Shown here in pieces: positions 5,401 to 39,443 of a stretch of 64,000 nucleotides of DNA. The stretch lies in UHGV virus genome UHGV-1410950; one strand, 5' to 3'. How positions within the stretch are numbered: the stretch's first letter is position 1; each line of letters opens with the position of its first letter. Under the pieces are notes generated by a model. It was given only the letters and a program-made list of their open reading frames with translations, had not been told where the DNA came from and made no database searches. Source of the DNA: a virus. A program made the position numbers and the translations under genes.

Positions 5401-8400
5401 TTGAAGACCAGCCCAAGGTCATACATGTTTTTCGGCTTTTCCGGCGCAGCGGTCAGCTTGCTGATAACCTCAGCCATGTACTCCTTGTACTTATTACCGT
5501 TGATCGTGGTGCCCGGCGTCGCGTTCTGCTCATATTTCATGGCCTCGATGAGCAGCTTTTTGCTGTTCTCATCCTTCGCCAGTGTTGCGGCGATGGCGTA
5601 GCCCTGAAAATCAGTTGCCTCGGTCGAGTAGAAACCAACATCCGGCTTAATTGGCAGATTGAACGGCTTCCCGTGCTTCTTAAAGTAATCCTGCCCGATT
5701 TCAGACGCGGCGTAGACGTGCCCGCTATTCATTTTCAGGATGTTGTCGATAACGGTCGTGTATGCGCCCTTATCGCCATTGTTGTCCTTGATGAATTCCA
5801 GACCGATAGCACTCGCATCATCGCCGTTAGCGCCAGCCAACGCCTGTTTGAGCGCCACAATCTCGCTGCCCGCGCTGCCATTTGCTGAGGTCTCAGGCAT
5901 GTCCTGCTGTAAGATCCAGTGCCCGTTATGGAAGACCAGCGTACCGCCTTTACCCTGCTTGGTATCACCCTCCTGCGGGCCATCCTCTACCAGCCACTTA
6001 TTGACCTCCTGCTGGTACAGTTTAACCTGCACAGCAGCTGGCTCGGAAAGGTGAAGCTCGCTCAGCTCATTAAAGTGCTTGGCGATCACATCAGGATCCG
6101 ATTCTTTGCCTTTGTGAATTTCTTCGGCAATGACGTTATAGAGGGTCTGCACTTTCGTGCCATAGGTTTTCACCGTATCGCTGGTTGGTGATACCAGAGG
6201 TTTTTCTGGCTCAGTGCCGTAAGTCTCGCTCCACCATTTCCCGTAGGCTTTCTTACCTGCGATAAAGAATTCATTTGCCAGCTCGTTAAAGCCATTGTCC
6301 TTCATGGCCTCAGCCATCGCCACCAGATGCGGCGCATCGTGACCGTTAGCCGTCATCCAGTCGCCAGCCATCGCATCGGCTTGCTTTTCGTCCTTGGCAT
6401 CTGTCAGCATGTCAAACGCACTTTCCCACAGAGCGTAATCGTTCAGGATCGCTTTCTTCTCCTGCTTACGCTCATGCTTAGTGGCAGTCTGCTCGGATTT
6501 CGCCGCAGCCTGAGACTTCTCGGCCCATGAATCGTACAGCTTCCCGACGCTGGACTCGGAGAAGGCCAGATCGCTACCGTAATAGGTAGACGCCTGCTCA
6601 ATGAATGCCTCGCCTTTTGTCTTCGCCCACTCGTTGAACTCAGCCACATCGGCAAAATCCGGCAGCTGCGGCTCAGGGGTTGGCGCACGCTCCTGCTTGA
6701 TCTGCGGTGGCGTCGGCAGGGATTTCACGGAGATATCGCCCAGCTCTTTCTTGGCGGCGGTCACGGCTTCGATGATCCACGCGGACAGATCAACCTTCTG
6801 GAAGGCATCAATCAGGTTCTGGTCATCACGGATCACTGTCACCATGTCGTTGATGTTGTCCACAGCCAGCGCCCAGTTACCCGCGTTGAGGTCATTCTGG
6901 ATGTCCTCACAGATGCCGTCGATAAACGCATCACCAGTCTGCGGAGGATTGGAGAAAGTCTTCACTCCCTCAGGCTTAGGCGCAGCAGCAAGGCCCAGAG
7001 ACTCCGCCAGATTGACCGCAGGCTCTTTGCCAGCCATTACCTGCTGGTAAACCTCATTCTGCGTGTTGGAGAAGCCGGAGATATGGCCCCAGTCGCCCTT
7101 CTCGTTAACCCACATACCAGAGCCCGGATTCTTCGGATCCGCGACGATGACTGCGCTGGTATTGGTCGGGTAAACGCCTGCGTCTGGAGTCGTGGACAGC
7201 ACGCCATTCCACATGTTCTTGATGACGTTTTGCTGCTTCTTGGTCAGGTGATTCGGCTTGCCCAGCTCCACCAGCTCGGTCGGGTACTCGCTATGGTGAT
7301 AGTCGGAAATGTAGCCCAGATTGTCCGGGGTTTTGGTGTTGCCACCAAAGCCGATCAGTTTCAGGTACTGGCCCGCTTGGAACGGTTTCGCCAGCGGCTC
7401 CCCCTTCTTGCTCATAGGCCATGCGGTCGCGTGCCCCATCAGCACTTTCAGGTACGGGTTGCCGTCCTTGTCATAGGTCTGGATGATCGAGCCAGCAGGC
7501 AGGTTAGGCATGTCAGAGATAGACAGCTTCTGGCCCTTTTTGAACTCACCAGCGACAGGCTGATCCTTGAGCGGCTCGCCAGTCTCCTGATTGTGCCAGC
7601 GACCGTCTTTGAAGACCTGCATCCCGTTTTTGCCCATGCGGGTTTCACCTTCCTGCGGGCCTTCCTCAGCCCGGACGGCTTTCTGCTGCTCAACCTCGGC
7701 GCTGGCCTTCTGATCCTTTTCTGCCTGGCTAAACTGGCCCAGCATTGGATGCACGGCGTCTTTGCCGATGACCACTTTGATGTCAGGGTAGCCCAGCGCT
7801 GCCAGCGCGTTATTCGCAGCCTTGGCGACTTTGAGCCCGTAGGTGTTTTTGCCGTAGGTCATCGCCAGAATGCCGTTGATGTTGCCTACTTCGCCAGCGG
7901 CCTTGATAGCGGCGATCTGCGCGTTGTAGCTCTTGGCATTCTTAATGTTCTCCGCGACGGCGAACTGGCTCCAGTCGATAGCTTCCATGGCCTTCTTCGA
8001 CACGGATGCTTTCGGGGCTGGCTTGCCTTCGGCGGTGTCCGGCTGCGCCGGGGAGGTAGCGATGATTTCAACCGCGCTCAATGGGCTCGGCTCCTCGGAC
8101 TGCACCAGCGGCTTATTCGGATTCTCACCCGTCAGCAGCGCCAGCTTTTGCCCGTAGAGGTTCAGCAGCTTTTTGCTGTTCGGGGTGATGCCCTTCCAGC
8201 TTTTCGCCTTGCTCTTGATAGCTTCCAGCTCCGCCAGACTGGTGGCGTCGATGACCTTCTGAGCCTGCGCCTCATACGCGGTGCGCACGCCAGTGGAGTT
8301 TTTGCCGGATTCAAATTTAGGCATGACGATTTCGCCTGGCTTCGGTGCTTCGGCAGCAGGTGTTGAGGCTTTCTGGACTTCTTCTTTAGCTGCGTTTTTT

Positions 8401-33146: not shown

Positions 33147-33691
33147 TAAAACAATTCTCCTTGCACTGGTACGACTCCGTAGCCATCTGGTCTGACCACC
33201 CGAAGCCCAAAATATACCTGCCGCGTGTTGTCCCGTAGTGCCCCGATAATCAGCTCATCGACTGACACAGCGCGTTGCTTGCGAACCGTCACCACATTCC
33301 CCCCGGTCATCACCGTAACGGCATGAGGCACCAGAGGGGGGTGGTTGAGGGGCTTGCGACCACGGGCATTCTTGCCGATGACGCACTCTCTCTCACGATT
33401 CCAGCAGCTAACGCAGATGTCATGCCCGATGAGCCTGAGGCCAGTACGTTGACAGCGTGAACAGATGGGGATTCCGCACAGTGAAGACTGGGCAATATCA
33501 CCCTCTCCGGCGTGATGGGCACCGATGGGGCATGATTTGCACAGCTGGGAGCATTCAGGAGACTTGTTGTTATTGGTTTGAGACCAAAGAGCGGCGCAAG
33601 ACGAGACCTGCAAGGAGGCGCTGCGTCTGGCGCAATGAAACATCGGTTTGCCTGGTAATTCTGGCAATGTGAAGTATTCGATTGGTTCCAT
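33146..33691 (-). CDS. Cys-rich zinc-binding protein
   Basis: Multiple CxxC pairs (CKSC, CSRC, CVSC). Confidence 0.5.
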   Translation of the reverse strand: MEPIEYFTLPELPGKPMFHCARRSASLQVSSCAALWSQTNNNKSPECSQLCKSCPIGAHHAGEGDIAQSSLCGIPICSRCQRTGLRLIGHDICVSCWNRERECVIGKNARGRKPLNHPPLVPHAVTVMTGGNVVTVRKQRAVSVDELIIGALRDNTRQVYFGLRVVRPDGYGVVPVQGELF

Positions 33692-33827
33692 GAGAAAACT
33701 CTCACCCGTTCGTCTTAGTCGAGCAGAGTATAGCGCTTTTTTGAGGTGATGGAAGCCGTGACGGCTTGGTACAGCGTGTTGCAGTGCGAAAAAGTGGAAT
33801 TGTCACAGAAAAATAGCCAGACAGAGC

Positions 33828-33896
33828 CACATAAATAAATAAATAAATATAAATAAATTATATAGTTAGTTAGTAGTAGTAGTAAGTGTCTGTGTT
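33828..33896. repeat. microsatellites (AAAT)n and (TAGT/TAG)n inside a 515-bp AT-rich noncoding region
   Basis: aaataaataaataaatataaataaatt then tagttagttagtagtagtagtaag. Confidence 0.8.
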
Positions 33897-34156
33897 GTGC
33901 TGTGACTGTGTTACGGCTGTGACGGTAAATCTATACCATTACGCGACTCAGGATGCCTATTACAGTATATCAATATCCTTACAGTAATTATTTTATTACT
34001 CTATAGGGGTATTTCTTTAGTTCTCTATATCTCCCTCGCATTTTTACTGTCCCACCGTCACAACTCCCACGCAAGCCGCGTCATTGCTGGATTTTTTGCG
34101 TTACTCAGGCACTGACACAGCAACTGGTGCAACTGTCCCCGCGTCACAGAAAAACC

Positions 34157-34180
34157 AAAAAAAAGCCCGCTTGCGCGGGC
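34157..34180 (-). terminator. rho-independent terminator after the Cro/CI-like gene
   Basis: gcccgc-ttgc-gcgggc preceded on + by A8. Confidence 0.65.
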
Positions 34181-34206
34181 ATTATCATTACTCTGTAACG
34201 AATTAA

Positions 34207-36359: not shown

Positions 36360-36820
36360 CAGCGATCCCCTTCGTGGGTTGCGTCTTCAATCTCGCGGAG
36401 GCTTTTCCCTTCCGCCAGTGCTTTGGCCTGCCAGTAGTCGAGGCATCCCATCTGCGCTTCCATCTGTTCTTGATGCGCGGCATCCATCCAGCCAGCGTTT
36501 TCCAGATGGCGCTCATATGCGGCATCCGGGTCGCCGTGGTCGGCAAACTGCTCATACAGGTGGTCTTCGGTCTCTTTCTTCCACTCGGTGAAAGAGGCCA
36601 GCGCCGCGTTGAGCATCACCGGAGAATTGGAGAAGAACAGCGCCTTTTTCTCGGTGCGCTCAGCGCTGCCAGTCAGGGCCCAGCGCAGCACGACCACTTT
36701 GCCTTCGCCGCCGATTTCAACGCTCAGGTTATGAGCCGGGGAGCTCATGATCAGCTCGGTTAACAGCAGCTCAAATTCGGCCTTGGTCATGCGCGGTGCG
36801 GTGCGTTTTATGTTGGTCAT
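36359..36820 (-). CDS. hypothetical protein
   Basis: 153-aa ORF. Promoter 36855-36883 upstream. Confidence 0.55.
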   Translation of the reverse strand: MTNIKRTAPRMTKAEFELLLTELIMSSPAHNLSVEIGGEGKVVVLRWALTGSAERTEKKALFFSNSPVMLNAALASFTEWKKETEDHLYEQFADHGDPDAAYERHLENAGWMDAAHQEQMEAQMGCLDYWQAKALAEGKSLREIEDATHEGDR

Positions 36821-36854
36821 TTCGTTTATCTCGTTACCTTGGGTTGGTGAGATA

Positions 36855-36883
36855 AATATACGTCATGCGTGACGGGTGCGCAA
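36855..36883 (-). promoter_or_regulatory. sigma70-like promoter TTGCGC-17-TATATT with perfect palindrome CGTCACGCATGACG in the spacer
   Basis: Minus strand reads TTGCGCacccgtcacgcatgacgTATATT. Leader contains CTCACCAACCCAAGGT. Confidence 0.45.
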
Positions 36884-36949
36884 GGAGAAAATTACACAAT
36901 AACGAAAATATTATTGTTTGTTTGGACCCATGGTTAGGGGCCGGAGAGA

Positions 36950-37288
36950 TTAGTTACAGCGGACGGTGCCAAACGAATCGCGTCGGCAGGTGCTGCCATC
37001 GCTTCCCCGCGTCGTGCCGAAACTGTCCGTGCGCCAGCTGTTCCCATTGTTGTCACGGGTGGTGCCGAAACTGTCCGTGCGGTACACGGAGCCATCGCTG
37101 CCGCGCGTGGTACCAAACGAATCGGTGCGCCAGCTGTTTCCGTGATTATCGCGCGTTGTCCCGAAGGAGTCCGTGCGGTAGGTGGTACCATCATCACAGC
37201 GCGTGGTACCGAAGGAGTCAGATCGGCAGGTCAGCGCTGCGGCGTTAAAGCTGGCGGCAAGCGCCAGCAGGAGGATCAGTTTCTTCAT
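36950..37288 (-). CDS. secreted protein made of 16-aa tandem repeats (RTDSFGTTR-x7)
   Basis: Signal peptide MKKLILLLALAASFNAAAL, then 5.5 copies of RTDSFGTTR(D/G)(N/S).G(N/S).(W/Y). Underlying DNA has 48-bp periodicity. GAGAGG RBS. Confidence 0.65.
   Translation of the reverse strand: MKKLILLLALAASFNAAALTCRSDSFGTTRCDDGTTYRTDSFGTTRDNHGNSWRTDSFGTTRGSDGSVYRTDSFGTTRDNNGNSWRTDSFGTTRGSDGSTCRRDSFGTVRCN
36960..37250. repeat. intragenic 48-bp tandem DNA repeats (coding the 16-aa repeats)
   Basis: Repeated ...cgtgcgg.a....gga(g/a)(c/t)c... units at the nucleotide level. Confidence 0.7.
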
Positions 37289-37418
37289 AAGTACCTCTCT
37301 TAATAAAAATTGGCACATTGCCCCATGCGTTGCCACGGCTTGCATCGCCTTTCCCGGCCAGAGCATACCGCTCCCGGCAAAATATAATTACATCGCTATA
37401 TCCACGCTCACATGAATA

Positions 37419-37720
37419 TAACGCTGTATTAGCCCTTACCTCACCTTACCTCACCCTACCTCACCTTACCCTGCCATACCCGACCTCTGCTTTACTTCGC
37501 TATGCGCCCAAATCAGACGCATAACGCTGTATTAGCCCATGCCGCACCCAACCTCACCCTACCATACCCCACAAAGCCGTACCCAAACTTTACTTCGCTT
37601 TACCCCCGCGAACAGAGGTAAAACGCTGTATTAGCCCTAGCCTCACCCCTCCATACCGTGCCGTGCCTGACCGAACCGGGCCTTACCTCGACTTTATTTC
37701 GCTTTCAAATTTAATATAAT
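37419..37720. repeat. three tandem ~101-bp direct repeats (noncoding)
   Basis: Each unit starts with ATAACGCTGTATTAGCCC (37419, 37521, 37621). A ~55-nt C-rich, G-poor core follows with CCTCACC/CCATACC motifs. Each ends with ACTTTACTTCGCT. Confidence 0.85.
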
Positions 37721-38229
37721 TACGAACCAAAGACTGCATCTCGAATGTCTTTAATTTTCTTTTTATTCCCGCCTCCATCCAGTTTCATTTTGGCGTCGGC
37801 TAACCTGTTTTTTTCATGGTTAGTCATGCTGTCATCGCGGAGATTATTGAGCCGCAAGCGTGCCTTTTTATATCCACGCCTAATGGTCTTTTGCAATTCA
37901 TCGACAGCTACGCTGATTGCATCAGCGGCTGAGATCTGCTGATAGCCGATGCCAATAACTGCACGGAACTGAATTTTATGTTCCTCAGCCATGTGACGGA
38001 AAAATTCAGTCCGTCTTTTGAGGAATGTAACCTCCCATTGCTGGTGATCTTTTCTTTCACCAGAAGAAGGATAATCCGGGATTTCAAGCGCGGACTCAAA
38101 CCAACAGGTTGGGGTTACATCGCCGTCTTTATTTCCGTTAGCGATATATTTAGCCGCTGCTCTTTCTGCAAACCCAGACTGCGGACTATCTTCATCGAGA
38201 GAAATATCAATATTGTCAATATCAATCAT
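37720..38229 (-). CDS. hypothetical protein, distal gene of an AT-rich two-gene cassette
   Basis: 169-aa ORF. Low local GC. Start is 2 nt after the upstream stop. Confidence 0.55.
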   Translation of the reverse strand: MIDIDNIDISLDEDSPQSGFAERAAAKYIANGNKDGDVTPTCWFESALEIPDYPSSGERKDHQQWEVTFLKRRTEFFRHMAEEHKIQFRAVIGIGYQQISAADAISVAVDELQKTIRRGYKKARLRLNNLRDDSMTNHEKNRLADAKMKLDGGGNKKKIKDIRDAVFGS

Positions 38230-38230
38230 T

Positions 38231-38809
38231 TTATTCCACCTCGTCAGCGTAAATCACATCAAACCGCCCGAACTTTGGCCTGTAGTCGCAAATACCGATT
38301 TGAGTACCAGCTTCGATAAGTGCTTTCTTAACATCATGTGCGTCGATGTTTTTTTCATCGAACTGGATAATAAATTCCAGTGACCATTCATTAAATCTTG
38401 GTCTATAGCGCATAATTTTAGCCGCCCCCACCTTAACAGAGCGGGCATCATAGAATTTTTTATCCCACAACGACTCGATGCTTTTAGGCCCGTTATAAAT
38501 AAGCGGGATTTCGAGGCCGACAACCTCAACCGAACGCTTAAATAATGTTCCCAGCTTTGAAAGTTTAGCCGCTCCAATAAGAGCCGCTTCCACGATAGTT
38601 GTAGGGATAATAACTGATTCATCCCCAGCTAAATAAAGCGATGAGCGCCATTCGCTTTTTGCAATTTCGATATGGTCTTCATCGGTTTTTTTACGTTTAG
38701 CTGTCAGCAGCTTGTGCCGCTTCGTCAGCTCATTAAGTGGATCAGCAAATACATCAGCGTGCATAAGGAGTGGGCGGGAGCCCTCGATCTTGCATTTAAT
38801 GAAACTCAT
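38231..38809 (-). CDS. hypothetical protein, proximal gene of an AT-rich two-gene cassette
   Basis: 192-aa ORF with AAGGTAAGAAAT RBS. Own promoter upstream. Confidence 0.55.
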   Translation of the reverse strand: MSFIKCKIEGSRPLLMHADVFADPLNELTKRHKLLTAKRKKTDEDHIEIAKSEWRSSLYLAGDESVIIPTTIVEAALIGAAKLSKLGTLFKRSVEVVGLEIPLIYNGPKSIESLWDKKFYDARSVKVGAAKIMRYRPRFNEWSLEFIIQFDEKNIDAHDVKKALIEAGTQIGICDYRPKFGRFDVIYADEVE

Positions 38810-38834
38810 ATTTCTTACCTTGCCTTGCGTTTGA

Positions 38835-38872
38835 ATGTGAAAGGATTATCCATACAGTAACTGCAAAAATCA
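38835..38872 (-). promoter_or_regulatory. sigma70 promoter TTGATT-17-GATAAT for the AT-rich cassette
   Basis: Minus strand reads TTGATTtttgcagttactgtatgGATAAT, between terminator 38895-38919 and the ATG at 38809. Confidence 0.5.
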
Positions 38873-38894
38873 ACATCTTTTTTGATGCGCCCTT

Positions 38895-38919
38895 AAAAAA
38901 AAGCCCCGAATAACGGGGC
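38895..38919 (-). terminator. rho-independent terminator after gene 38925..39443
   Basis: gccccg-aataa-cggggc preceded on + by A8. Confidence 0.65.
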
Positions 38920-38924
38920 GTTTG

Positions 38925-39443
38925 TTATCGTTGCAGCAGCAGGTCAACCTGCCGTTTCAGGGCGGAGATCTCCCAGTCCTTTTCCTCAATCGCTTTATTC
39001 TTCTCGGTCAGCACCTGACGGCACATTTCATTCAGTTTGAGGACATCCTGCCTGACGCCTTCGATTCTGGCGTCGCGCTCGGCTACCTTGCAGCGTTCGA
39101 GGTGGAGCGCCTCGCAGGTTTTGCTGTGCGCATCAATCTCAGCTTTATAGGCTAGCTTAGTGGTCTGGTGATCTTCCTCTGATTTTGTCAGGGCCAGCCG
39201 CAGGCGCATCAATTCCAGCATATCGTTGCCGCCGAAACTAAACGGATCCTGATAGCTGTGCTGCGTGCGGCGATATTCGCGCTGCTCAGGCTGAACCTTT
39301 GCGCCGGGCACGTTGATAGTGCGCAGGTCGATCCCGGCCTGATTGGCATAAGCCACGGCACGACCGAAAGCCGTTGCGGCTTCCTCTTTGTTCGTGGTGC
39401 CGTAGGCCAGCGCCAGCAGCTTTTCAATTTTCGCCCTACTCAT
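38925..39443 (-). CDS. DUF2786-like N-terminal domain protein with coiled-coil C-terminus
   Basis: N-terminus MSRAKIEKLLALAYGTTNKEEAATAFGRAVAYANQAGIDL matches the DUF2786-type motif. Confidence 0.5.
   Translation of the reverse strand: MSRAKIEKLLALAYGTTNKEEAATAFGRAVAYANQAGIDLRTINVPGAKVQPEQREYRRTQHSYQDPFSFGGNDMLELMRLRLALTKSEEDHQTTKLAYKAEIDAHSKTCEALHLERCKVAERDARIEGVRQDVLKLNEMCRQVLTEKNKAIEEKDWEISALKRQVDLLLQR

Follow-up and report, generated by a model that had tools for sequence, protein, structure and literature searches.

A probable type II VIPR system as an accessory cassette of a ~95-kb enterobacterial phage

An AT-rich cassette of two genes in UHGV virus genome UHGV-1410950 was analyzed within a window of 64,000 nucleotides, that is, 64 kb out of a ~96-kb genome. 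The locus is very probably (about 0.9) a type II Viral Interference Programmable Repeat (VIPR) system, which forms an accessory cassette in an enterobacterial phage of ~95 kb. VIPR systems consist of a minimal protein of the RAMP (CRISPR-associated RNA-binding) fold, named Vipr, an accessory vap gene and vrRNAs of ~100 nt (bioRxiv 10.64898/2026.04.26.720920). Each vrRNA is composed of 9–16 YNNGG pentamers followed by a conserved tail (bioRxiv 10.64898/2026.04.26.720920), and the published threshold for its detection is at least four pentamers. At the locus, a Vipr homologue with the RAMP fold and the RNA-contact residues, vrRNAs with a structured tail, a vap1 gene and a viral carrier without cas genes or CRISPR were all found. 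The type II assignment is made because the accessory gene is of the vap1 type and the layout is like that of the Escherichia phage SUSP1, the reference for this type. A preliminary description of the same DNA had presented the two genes as a candidate novel module, of the kind that serves superinfection exclusion, abortive infection or anti-defence. The system is in fact VIPR, already described (bioRxiv 10.64898/2026.04.26.720920; bioRxiv 10.64898/2026.04.26.720927), and homology points to RNA-guided DNA binding and transcriptional silencing. The role in phage conflict suspected earlier is in line with experiments showing that the family acts between phages (bioRxiv 10.64898/2026.04.26.720920), but a module made of proteins alone is not.

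Protein components and the vrRNA array

The first gene, which encodes 192 aa, was identified by homology. A profile built from 59 homologues matched PDB entry 36pp_D, annotated as 'SUSP1 Vipr protein', with an E-value of 1.4e-62 over positions 1–188/189, and BLASTP against SUSP1 Vipr gave 42% identity (E 1e-52). The product also belongs to phrog_4652 (E 5e-63), a family of unknown function, while neither Pfam nor PADLOC returned a match for it. On the basis of this homology, the gene product is a Vipr protein. Its homologues number 250 at E <= 0.001, and among the 120 listed all but the closest three are 51–62% identical. An identical sequence is limited to 15 contigs of this phage type, all from metagenome and read-archive assemblies.

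The RAMP fold was confirmed independently by the Cas7-type matches of an AlphaFold2 model (pLDDT 93.6, pTM 0.85). Of 72 PDB matches found by Foldseek at E <= 0.001, the first 50 listed were all RAMP subunits of CRISPR effectors, mostly Cas7-type. The best of them, Csm3, Cmr4 and type VII Cas7, reached E-values of about 1e-5 and TM scores of 0.5–0.59. A single RRM core, a glycine-rich loop and presumably a thumb are shared with these subunits, and one Vipr protomer is placed on each short RNA period, as in Cas7 backbones (bioRxiv 10.64898/2026.04.26.720927), whereas their sequence identity to the Vipr of the window is 7–14%.

In SUSP1 Vipr, G1 of each pentamer is contacted by H17 and D177, G2 by R138 and W178, and Y3 by R179 together with pocket residues, while K33 touches the backbone of the target (bioRxiv 10.64898/2026.04.26.720927). 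SUSP1 residues H17, R138, D177, W178, R179 and K33 align to H17, R136, D175, Y176, R177 and K33 of the window protein. Among the 59 homologues, R136, D175 and R177 never vary, and conservation of H17 and of K33 is at least 90%; Y176 is in neither group, and the change from W178 of SUSP1 to Y is conservative. The C-terminal loop reads G-x-C-D-Y-R-P-K-F-G-R-F, in which G172, D175, R177, P178, G181, R182 and F183 are invariant.

The second gene was less readily recognized. A search with its single sequence gave one near-identical cluster only, pairwise BLASTP against SUSP1 vap1 found no match, and sub-threshold Pfam matches (Nudc_N and others) were taken to be noise. The family came to light only through alignment of the genes next to the Vipr homologues, every inspected one of which is directly followed by a gene for a 153–182-aa protein that aligns with the 169-aa product; a subsequent profile search gave 102 relatives. 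When a profile of 72 homologues was compared with SUSP1 vap1 by hhalign, the two matched over 134 columns with a probability of 99.1% and an E-value of 6.7e-19. At the profile level, the gene is thus a vap1 homologue. A motif of the family, V-R-G-x-G-Y-R with the core V-x-G-x-G-Y, lies on a beta-hairpin that resembles the wing of OmpR-type winged helices, and the profile met the wing motif of TcpP weakly (E 0.46). The AlphaFold2 model (pLDDT 86.7) gave weak Foldseek matches (E >= 0.4), headed by OmpR-family and other winged-helix DNA-binding domains. A winged-helix-like DNA-binding region is therefore predicted for Vap1 from these fold comparisons. Vap proteins of type II are likewise predicted to be winged-helix-like DNA binders, and SUSP1 vap1 enhances protection (bioRxiv 10.64898/2026.04.26.720920).

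The third component is noncoding and lies just downstream of the genes. A repeat search detected three tandem copies of ~100 nt in 37418–37699, and each unit on the minus strand consists of 10–11 GGY-NN pentamers followed by a tail of ~50 nt that is common to all three (Table 1). Among 39 units, 36 retain G1, all 39 retain G2 and 37 retain Y3; positions N4 and N5, with entropies of 1.7 and 2.0 bits, are close to random. Three strict GGYNN tracts of 7–11 strict units are present in the 64-kb window, all within 37289–37719, compared with a mean of 0.2 in shuffled sequence; no other strict tract of at least five units was found on either strand of the window. One unit of vrRNA2 is degenerate (TGT). 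The array, which sets the specificity of the system, lies beyond the ends proposed in the preliminary description.

The canonical tail is composed of GGGCUAAUACA, a 13-bp hairpin and AAGUAAAG. Seven tails, drawn from the window, one sister phage and a Salmonella locus, were compared with RNAalifold. Every stem pair of the hairpin is kept, and compensatory, both-sided changes occur at 7 of the 16 predicted tail pairs; single-sequence folds reproduce the same hairpin. Such compensatory changes argue for purifying selection on the RNA.

Beyond vrRNA3 there is a fourth, degenerate tract. Its repeats (37379–37320) close with a short hairpin, GGCA-AUG-UGCC, and a U-run (37322–37302) rather than with the canonical tail, and the terminal element GGGGCAAUGYGCCAAUU also closes the array in sister phages (contig L003). 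The tract may be a guide that doubles as the transcript end, or a remnant.

By analogy with experiments on the SUSP1 and P. fulva systems, we infer that the vrRNAs are expressed and processed, that a ribonucleoprotein is assembled, and that it reads DNA by skipping single bases and silences it. Published Vipr–vrRNA complexes bind double-stranded DNA through the NN pairs only, with one target base skipped per unit, and transcription is silenced (bioRxiv 10.64898/2026.04.26.720920). At the present locus, one promoter would give vipr, vap1, the three canonical vrRNAs and the degenerate tract. Vipr protomers, one per GGY-NN pentamer, would form a helical filament on each vrRNA, in which the GGY bases are buried and the NN dinucleotides exposed. 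The exposed dinucleotides would pair with double-stranded DNA that carries complementary dinucleotides spaced by one skipped base, and the bound complex would keep the target, most likely a rival phage, satellite or prophage, from being transcribed. Vap1, as a winged-helix-like DNA binder, would enhance silencing.

Table 1. Features of the VIPR locus in the window; the ends of vrRNA1–3 are inferred, and the NN dinucleotides of each guide are given in order.
Feature	Position	Strand	Basis	Remarks
Acquired block	37289..38895		blastn break-points against phiT5282EW	
Terminator-like hairpin	38919..38903	minus	consensus scan	six G-C pairs, then T8
Sigma-70-like promoter (putative)	38873..38845	minus	consensus scan	TTGATT-17-GATAAT
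vipr	38231..38809	minus	profile, BLASTP, AlphaFold2/Foldseek	192 aa; RAMP fold
vap1	37720..38229	minus	profile-profile match to SUSP1 vap1	169 aa; accessory
vrRNA1	37690-37588	minus		NN (GA) AA CC TC CA AC AC AT GG GA TA
vrRNA2	37586-37490	minus		NN (TG) AC TT GG AT AG GA TG GC AT
vrRNA3	37488-37386	minus		NN (GA) CG AT AG AA GA AG GA AA GA AA
Degenerate fourth tract	37379-37302	minus		~11 period-5 units; NN CG GC AT CT CG AA GA AA GT AA AT

Extent of the cassette and relation to known systems

The phage is related to Enterobacter phage phiT5282EW and Escherichia phage ECML-606-1, both of ~95 kb. In blastn comparison, homology to phiT5282EW stops at 37288 and restarts at 38896. The block between these points measures 1607 bp. 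In the two closest sequenced phages its place is taken by a 519-bp segment with an unrelated 136-aa gene, which marks the block as accessory. Megablast against deposited phages matched only the upstream neighbor gene and not the cassette. The earlier limits of the unit (37720–38925) thus have to be replaced by those of the inserted block, which include 431 nt of noncoding DNA (37289–37719) that had not been flagged.

Both open reading frames were correctly placed on the minus strand in the preliminary description, although the gap between the stop of the first and the ATG of the second is 1 base and not 2. Their low G+C content is also borne out, with 0.41–0.46 over 37650–38999 against 0.51–0.62 in the flanks. 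The same applies to the view of the cassette as autonomous and accessory: a different gene occupies the site in the closest sequenced relatives, the pair moves among elements, and its homologs did not turn out to be conserved core phage genes, which supports accessory status. The pair stands at unrelated positions elsewhere, beside cI-type repressors in Pseudomonas and Vreelandella prophages, in a plasmid-like contig of Salmonella and inside the structural module of marine phages. Judged from these break-points and placements, the cassette is a horizontal acquisition.

Promoter and terminator matches carry weight through their position, because they are no commoner than in shuffled sequence (two promoter-like sites against 3.2 expected, and three terminator-like sites against 2.5). 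The promoter-like site lies within the inserted block and putatively drives vipr, vap1 and the array. The terminator lies outside the block and is assigned to the phage backbone, because homology to phiT5282EW restarts at 38896 and includes it. The consensus scan recovered both the promoter-like site and the strong upstream terminator proposed earlier, but the latter is not the cassette's own.

Library searches contributed little. Pfam, PADLOC and Rfam gave nothing useful for the locus, PHROGs gave families of unknown function only, no cas domains were detected in neighboring genes, and no CRISPR family was found by Rfam in 36800–39000. Class 1 CRISPR-Cas possesses a repeat-spacer array, Cas1/Cas2 and a multi-subunit effector, whereas the window locus has one RAMP-fold protein and no cas genes. 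Direct repeats of CRISPR are 25–40 nt long and alternate with contiguous spacers; in the window, 5-nt GGYNN units within ~100-nt RNAs would be read two bases at a time. Identity with class 1 CRISPR-Cas was ruled out by the single RAMP protein, the pentamer repeats and the lack of cas domains in the neighbors.

SUSP1 VIPR (PDB 36pp) shares with the window locus the order of vipr, vap1 after a gap of 1–2 nt, and a downstream array of ~100-nt GGY/NN vrRNAs with a structured 3' tail, and both are phage-borne. The two Vipr proteins align end to end with the RNA-contact residues kept, and the vap1 genes are homologous at the profile level. Differences are nevertheless considerable, as Vipr is only 42% identical and vap1 is invisible to pairwise BLAST. 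SUSP1 has a vrRNA upstream of vipr, whereas no GGYNN tract is present there at the window locus. The tail sequences are unrelated, and a pseudoknot is reported for the SUSP1 clade, whereas none is demonstrated in the window tails. W178 is replaced by Y, residues of the Y3 pocket differ, and the carrier is a Felixounavirus-type myovirus in one case and a ~95-kb phiT5282EW-like phage in the other.

The Vipr sequences closest to that of the window come from Pseudomonas and Vreelandella prophages (loci L009, L011, L013 and L020), at 55–60% identity among metagenome and genome matches, while that of LESphi2 is 48% identical. Vap1 of these prophages belongs to the same family (21–26% identity), and their tails start with the same GGGCU motif. 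Their vrRNA arrays lie upstream of vipr, between the cI-type repressor and the genes, which is the layout described for the published P. fulva locus, whereas the window array is downstream. Their Y3 is mostly C, and that of the window mostly U.

A plasmid-like contig of Salmonella enterica (L010) has a downstream array as well, with a Vipr 56% identical and a tail that is nearly the same (GGGCUGAAUAGCGUUAUG, hairpin, CAUAGCGAU). It differs in carrying at least six vrRNAs of 12–17 units and a Rep3 plasmid replication gene, and it is not a phage. In four marine phage contigs (L015–L018), a called 192-aa gene (about 7419–7997, minus strand) lies on the opposite strand over the vrRNA array upstream of vipr (tracts 7632–7924). 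This gene call is probably a spurious open reading frame caused by the repeats.

Guides, targets and competing explanations

Natural VIPR guides are aimed at satellites, prophages and other VIPR loci (bioRxiv 10.64898/2026.04.26.720920). For the window, targets were decoded from the NN pairs under the one-base-skip rule, and viral, genome and metagenome contigs were scanned with the guide codes as exact patterns; the published work accepts an NN match of at least 80%. Exact patterns of 9–10 units from vrRNA1–3 had no match in viral contigs. For vrRNA1, none was found in genome and metagenome contigs either, nor in viral contigs when the degenerate unit was treated as a wildcard or units 2–10 were used. 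The exact vrRNA2 pattern gave 13 matches in unrelated taxa among genome contigs, against about 17 expected by chance, and the exact vrRNA3 pattern gave 12 purine-rich, low-complexity matches among metagenome contigs, including a eukaryote-like contig family. Both sets were rejected.

Shorter patterns gave a few sites. Units 1–9 of vrRNA3 matched four, one of which (19/20) is common to 17 related contigs and covers codons 1–11 of a tape-measure gene. There the skipped base falls on codon position 1, the element has no known phage relative, and the match is probably due to chance. With units 1–9 of vrRNA1, one site was found on three contigs (18/20). It covers codons 3–11 of a Mu-F-like head gene of an uncultured B3/Mu-like phage, in frame and with the wobble bases skipped; as a target, this site is a weak candidate.

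The best candidate belongs to the fourth tract, ten units of which match 20/20 in two uncultured IMG/VR viral contigs (L071, 166–194; L072, 772–800). This match, too, keeps the reading frame and skips the wobble bases. Known phages and plasmids include no relative of the two contigs (170 kb and 452 kb, G+C content 0.6), which also show no similarity to the phage of the window. The matched gene, for a 173-aa protein of unknown function, is near genes for SprT-like and DUF7448 proteins. A rough chance estimate, scaled from the yield of the 18-base scans, is about 0.06 per scan with the reading frame uncounted. The match is a suggestive candidate on unplaced contigs.

Guides differ among sister phages. 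The guide region of vrRNA1 is identical in all relatives that carry the same Vipr, while its tail hairpin differs by compensatory changes. Five contigs with a 100% identical Vipr (L003 and L005–L008) carry a different guide at the second position (7227–7380, against 37302–37586 of the window). These five lack vrRNA3, which is present in the window and in L004, and hold two canonical vrRNAs where the window holds three. In phages that differ in this way, vipr, vap1 and the guide of vrRNA1 are the same in every base, and the arrays can still be aligned by their GGY register and their tails. Variation at the second and third guides under an identical Vipr is as expected for hypervariable guides under selection, and together with the compensatory hairpin changes it argues against a dead locus.

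Active renewal of guides, by exchange of whole-vrRNA cassettes or by templated rewriting of NN, would be one way to account for such variation; another reading takes the fourth tract as a new vrRNA architecture, based on its terminator-like tail and its 20/20 match to the uncultured viral contigs. This pair of ideas is unlikely. If true, active renewal would represent a primitive form of adaptation that is absent from the descriptions in the VIPR papers.

Several points weigh against the assignment to VIPR itself. Residues E71 and M72 of the SUSP1 Y3 pocket are T71 and I72 in the window, and Y3 is a purine in one unit of vrRNA1. The winged-helix assignment of Vap1 is drawn from weak fold matches, and transcription, vrRNA ends, processing and promoter activity are all deduced from sequence or homology. 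The guide-code scans of viral, genome and metagenome contigs yielded no convincing natural target, and relaxed matches occurred at about the rate of chance, in elements unrelated to enterobacterial phages. Moreover, published work on VIPR consists of two preprints from one group.

The lack of identified targets would suit a decayed or inactive VIPR remnant that is carried passively, and so would the degenerate unit in each of vrRNA1 and vrRNA2 and the strong degeneracy of the fourth tract. Nonetheless, both open reading frames are intact, the key Vipr residues are conserved, an identical Vipr is found on 15 contigs of the same phage type, and compensatory changes between close relatives preserve the pairing of the tail hairpins. 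Functional SUSP1 vrRNAs show internal degeneracy as well (bioRxiv 10.64898/2026.04.26.720920). A remnant is thus very unlikely.

Still less probable is a VIPR that regulates the phage's own genes, for instance as a life-cycle switch, instead of attacking competitors. VIPR is a transcriptional repressor, published guides often match lysis–lysogeny regulators (bioRxiv 10.64898/2026.04.26.720920), and the window covers 64 kb of the genome. However, no site for vrRNA1–3 with three or fewer mismatches is present in the window. For these three guides, neither the window nor the complete phiT5282EW genome scored better than 14–15 of 20–22 positions, which is background at the level of unrelated loci. 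The closest relatives lack the cassette, and the published systems show no self-targeting (bioRxiv 10.64898/2026.04.26.720920), which the lack of self-targets in the window matches.

A module that works through its two proteins alone, for defence, superinfection exclusion, abortive infection or as a toxin–antitoxin pair, would leave the downstream repeats irrelevant. The pair is indeed compact, AT-rich, autonomous and mobile between different elements, and in several prophages it lies directly downstream of a cI-type repressor on the same strand, the classic site of exclusion genes. This explanation is highly improbable, given that the first gene is a full-length homologue of a solved RNA-guided filament protein with its RNA-contact residues kept and that no PADLOC, toxin or Abi family was matched. 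In addition, the gene pair has GGYNN arrays beside it at each of the related loci inspected, namely in SUSP1, LESphi2, the Vreelandella and Pseudomonas prophages, the marine phages and the plasmid-like contig of Salmonella.

Finally, it is scarcely credible that the ~100-bp repeats are DNA elements, such as iterons or sites of a winged-helix protein, rather than RNA genes: tandem direct repeats do adjoin the gene of a predicted DNA-binding protein, but they show a strict 5-nt GGY/NN periodicity with hypervariable NN and a strand-specific placement downstream of the genes, the hairpin changes in sequence while its pairing is kept, which argues for selection on RNA structure and not for a fixed DNA-binding site, and the homologous SUSP1 repeats were sequenced as ~100-nt RNAs that co-purify with Vipr (bioRxiv 10.64898/2026.04.26.720920).

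Neighboring features and significance of the locus

Upstream of the cassette, the backbone gene at 38925–39443 (minus strand) shows an N-terminal match to DUF2786 with an E-value of 1.9e-5, slightly above the Pfam cut-off. The gene extends as far as the strong terminator, and its DNA is conserved in phiT5282EW at 92% identity. Directly downstream, the gene at 36950–37288 (minus strand) encodes 112 aa. Its true start is 37288 and not 37366, because homology to relatives and their annotation indicate that the listed 138-aa frame begins too early. After an N-terminus that resembles a signal peptide, MKKLILLLALAASFNAAAL, the protein contains a ~15-aa repeat in six tandem copies with the core (R/W)(S/T/R)DSFGT(T/V)R, which reads RTDSFGTTR in four of them. 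Scans of Pfam and PHROGs gave no family match for this protein. A second dip in G+C content, to 0.36, is located at about 33700–34200, where ~500 nt without open reading frames separate the genes ending at 33691 and 34207. A comparable unannotated gap of ~500 bp exists at the corresponding place in phiT5282EW (L001, 896–1390), and this stretch may have a regulatory role or serve as an origin.

First described in 2026, VIPR is a phage-borne relative of CRISPR that silences DNA under RNA guidance and may be older than CRISPR. The understanding of its mechanism is not altered by the present locus, which adds a poorly annotated family of enterobacterial phages of ~95 kb to its known range. Small AT-rich cassettes that appear to hold two genes can conceal a third, noncoding component just past the last stop codon. 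Sister phages that lack the cassette, or that carry the same Vipr with other guides, offer a natural comparison, and the targets of the four decodable guides could reveal the competitors of these phages.

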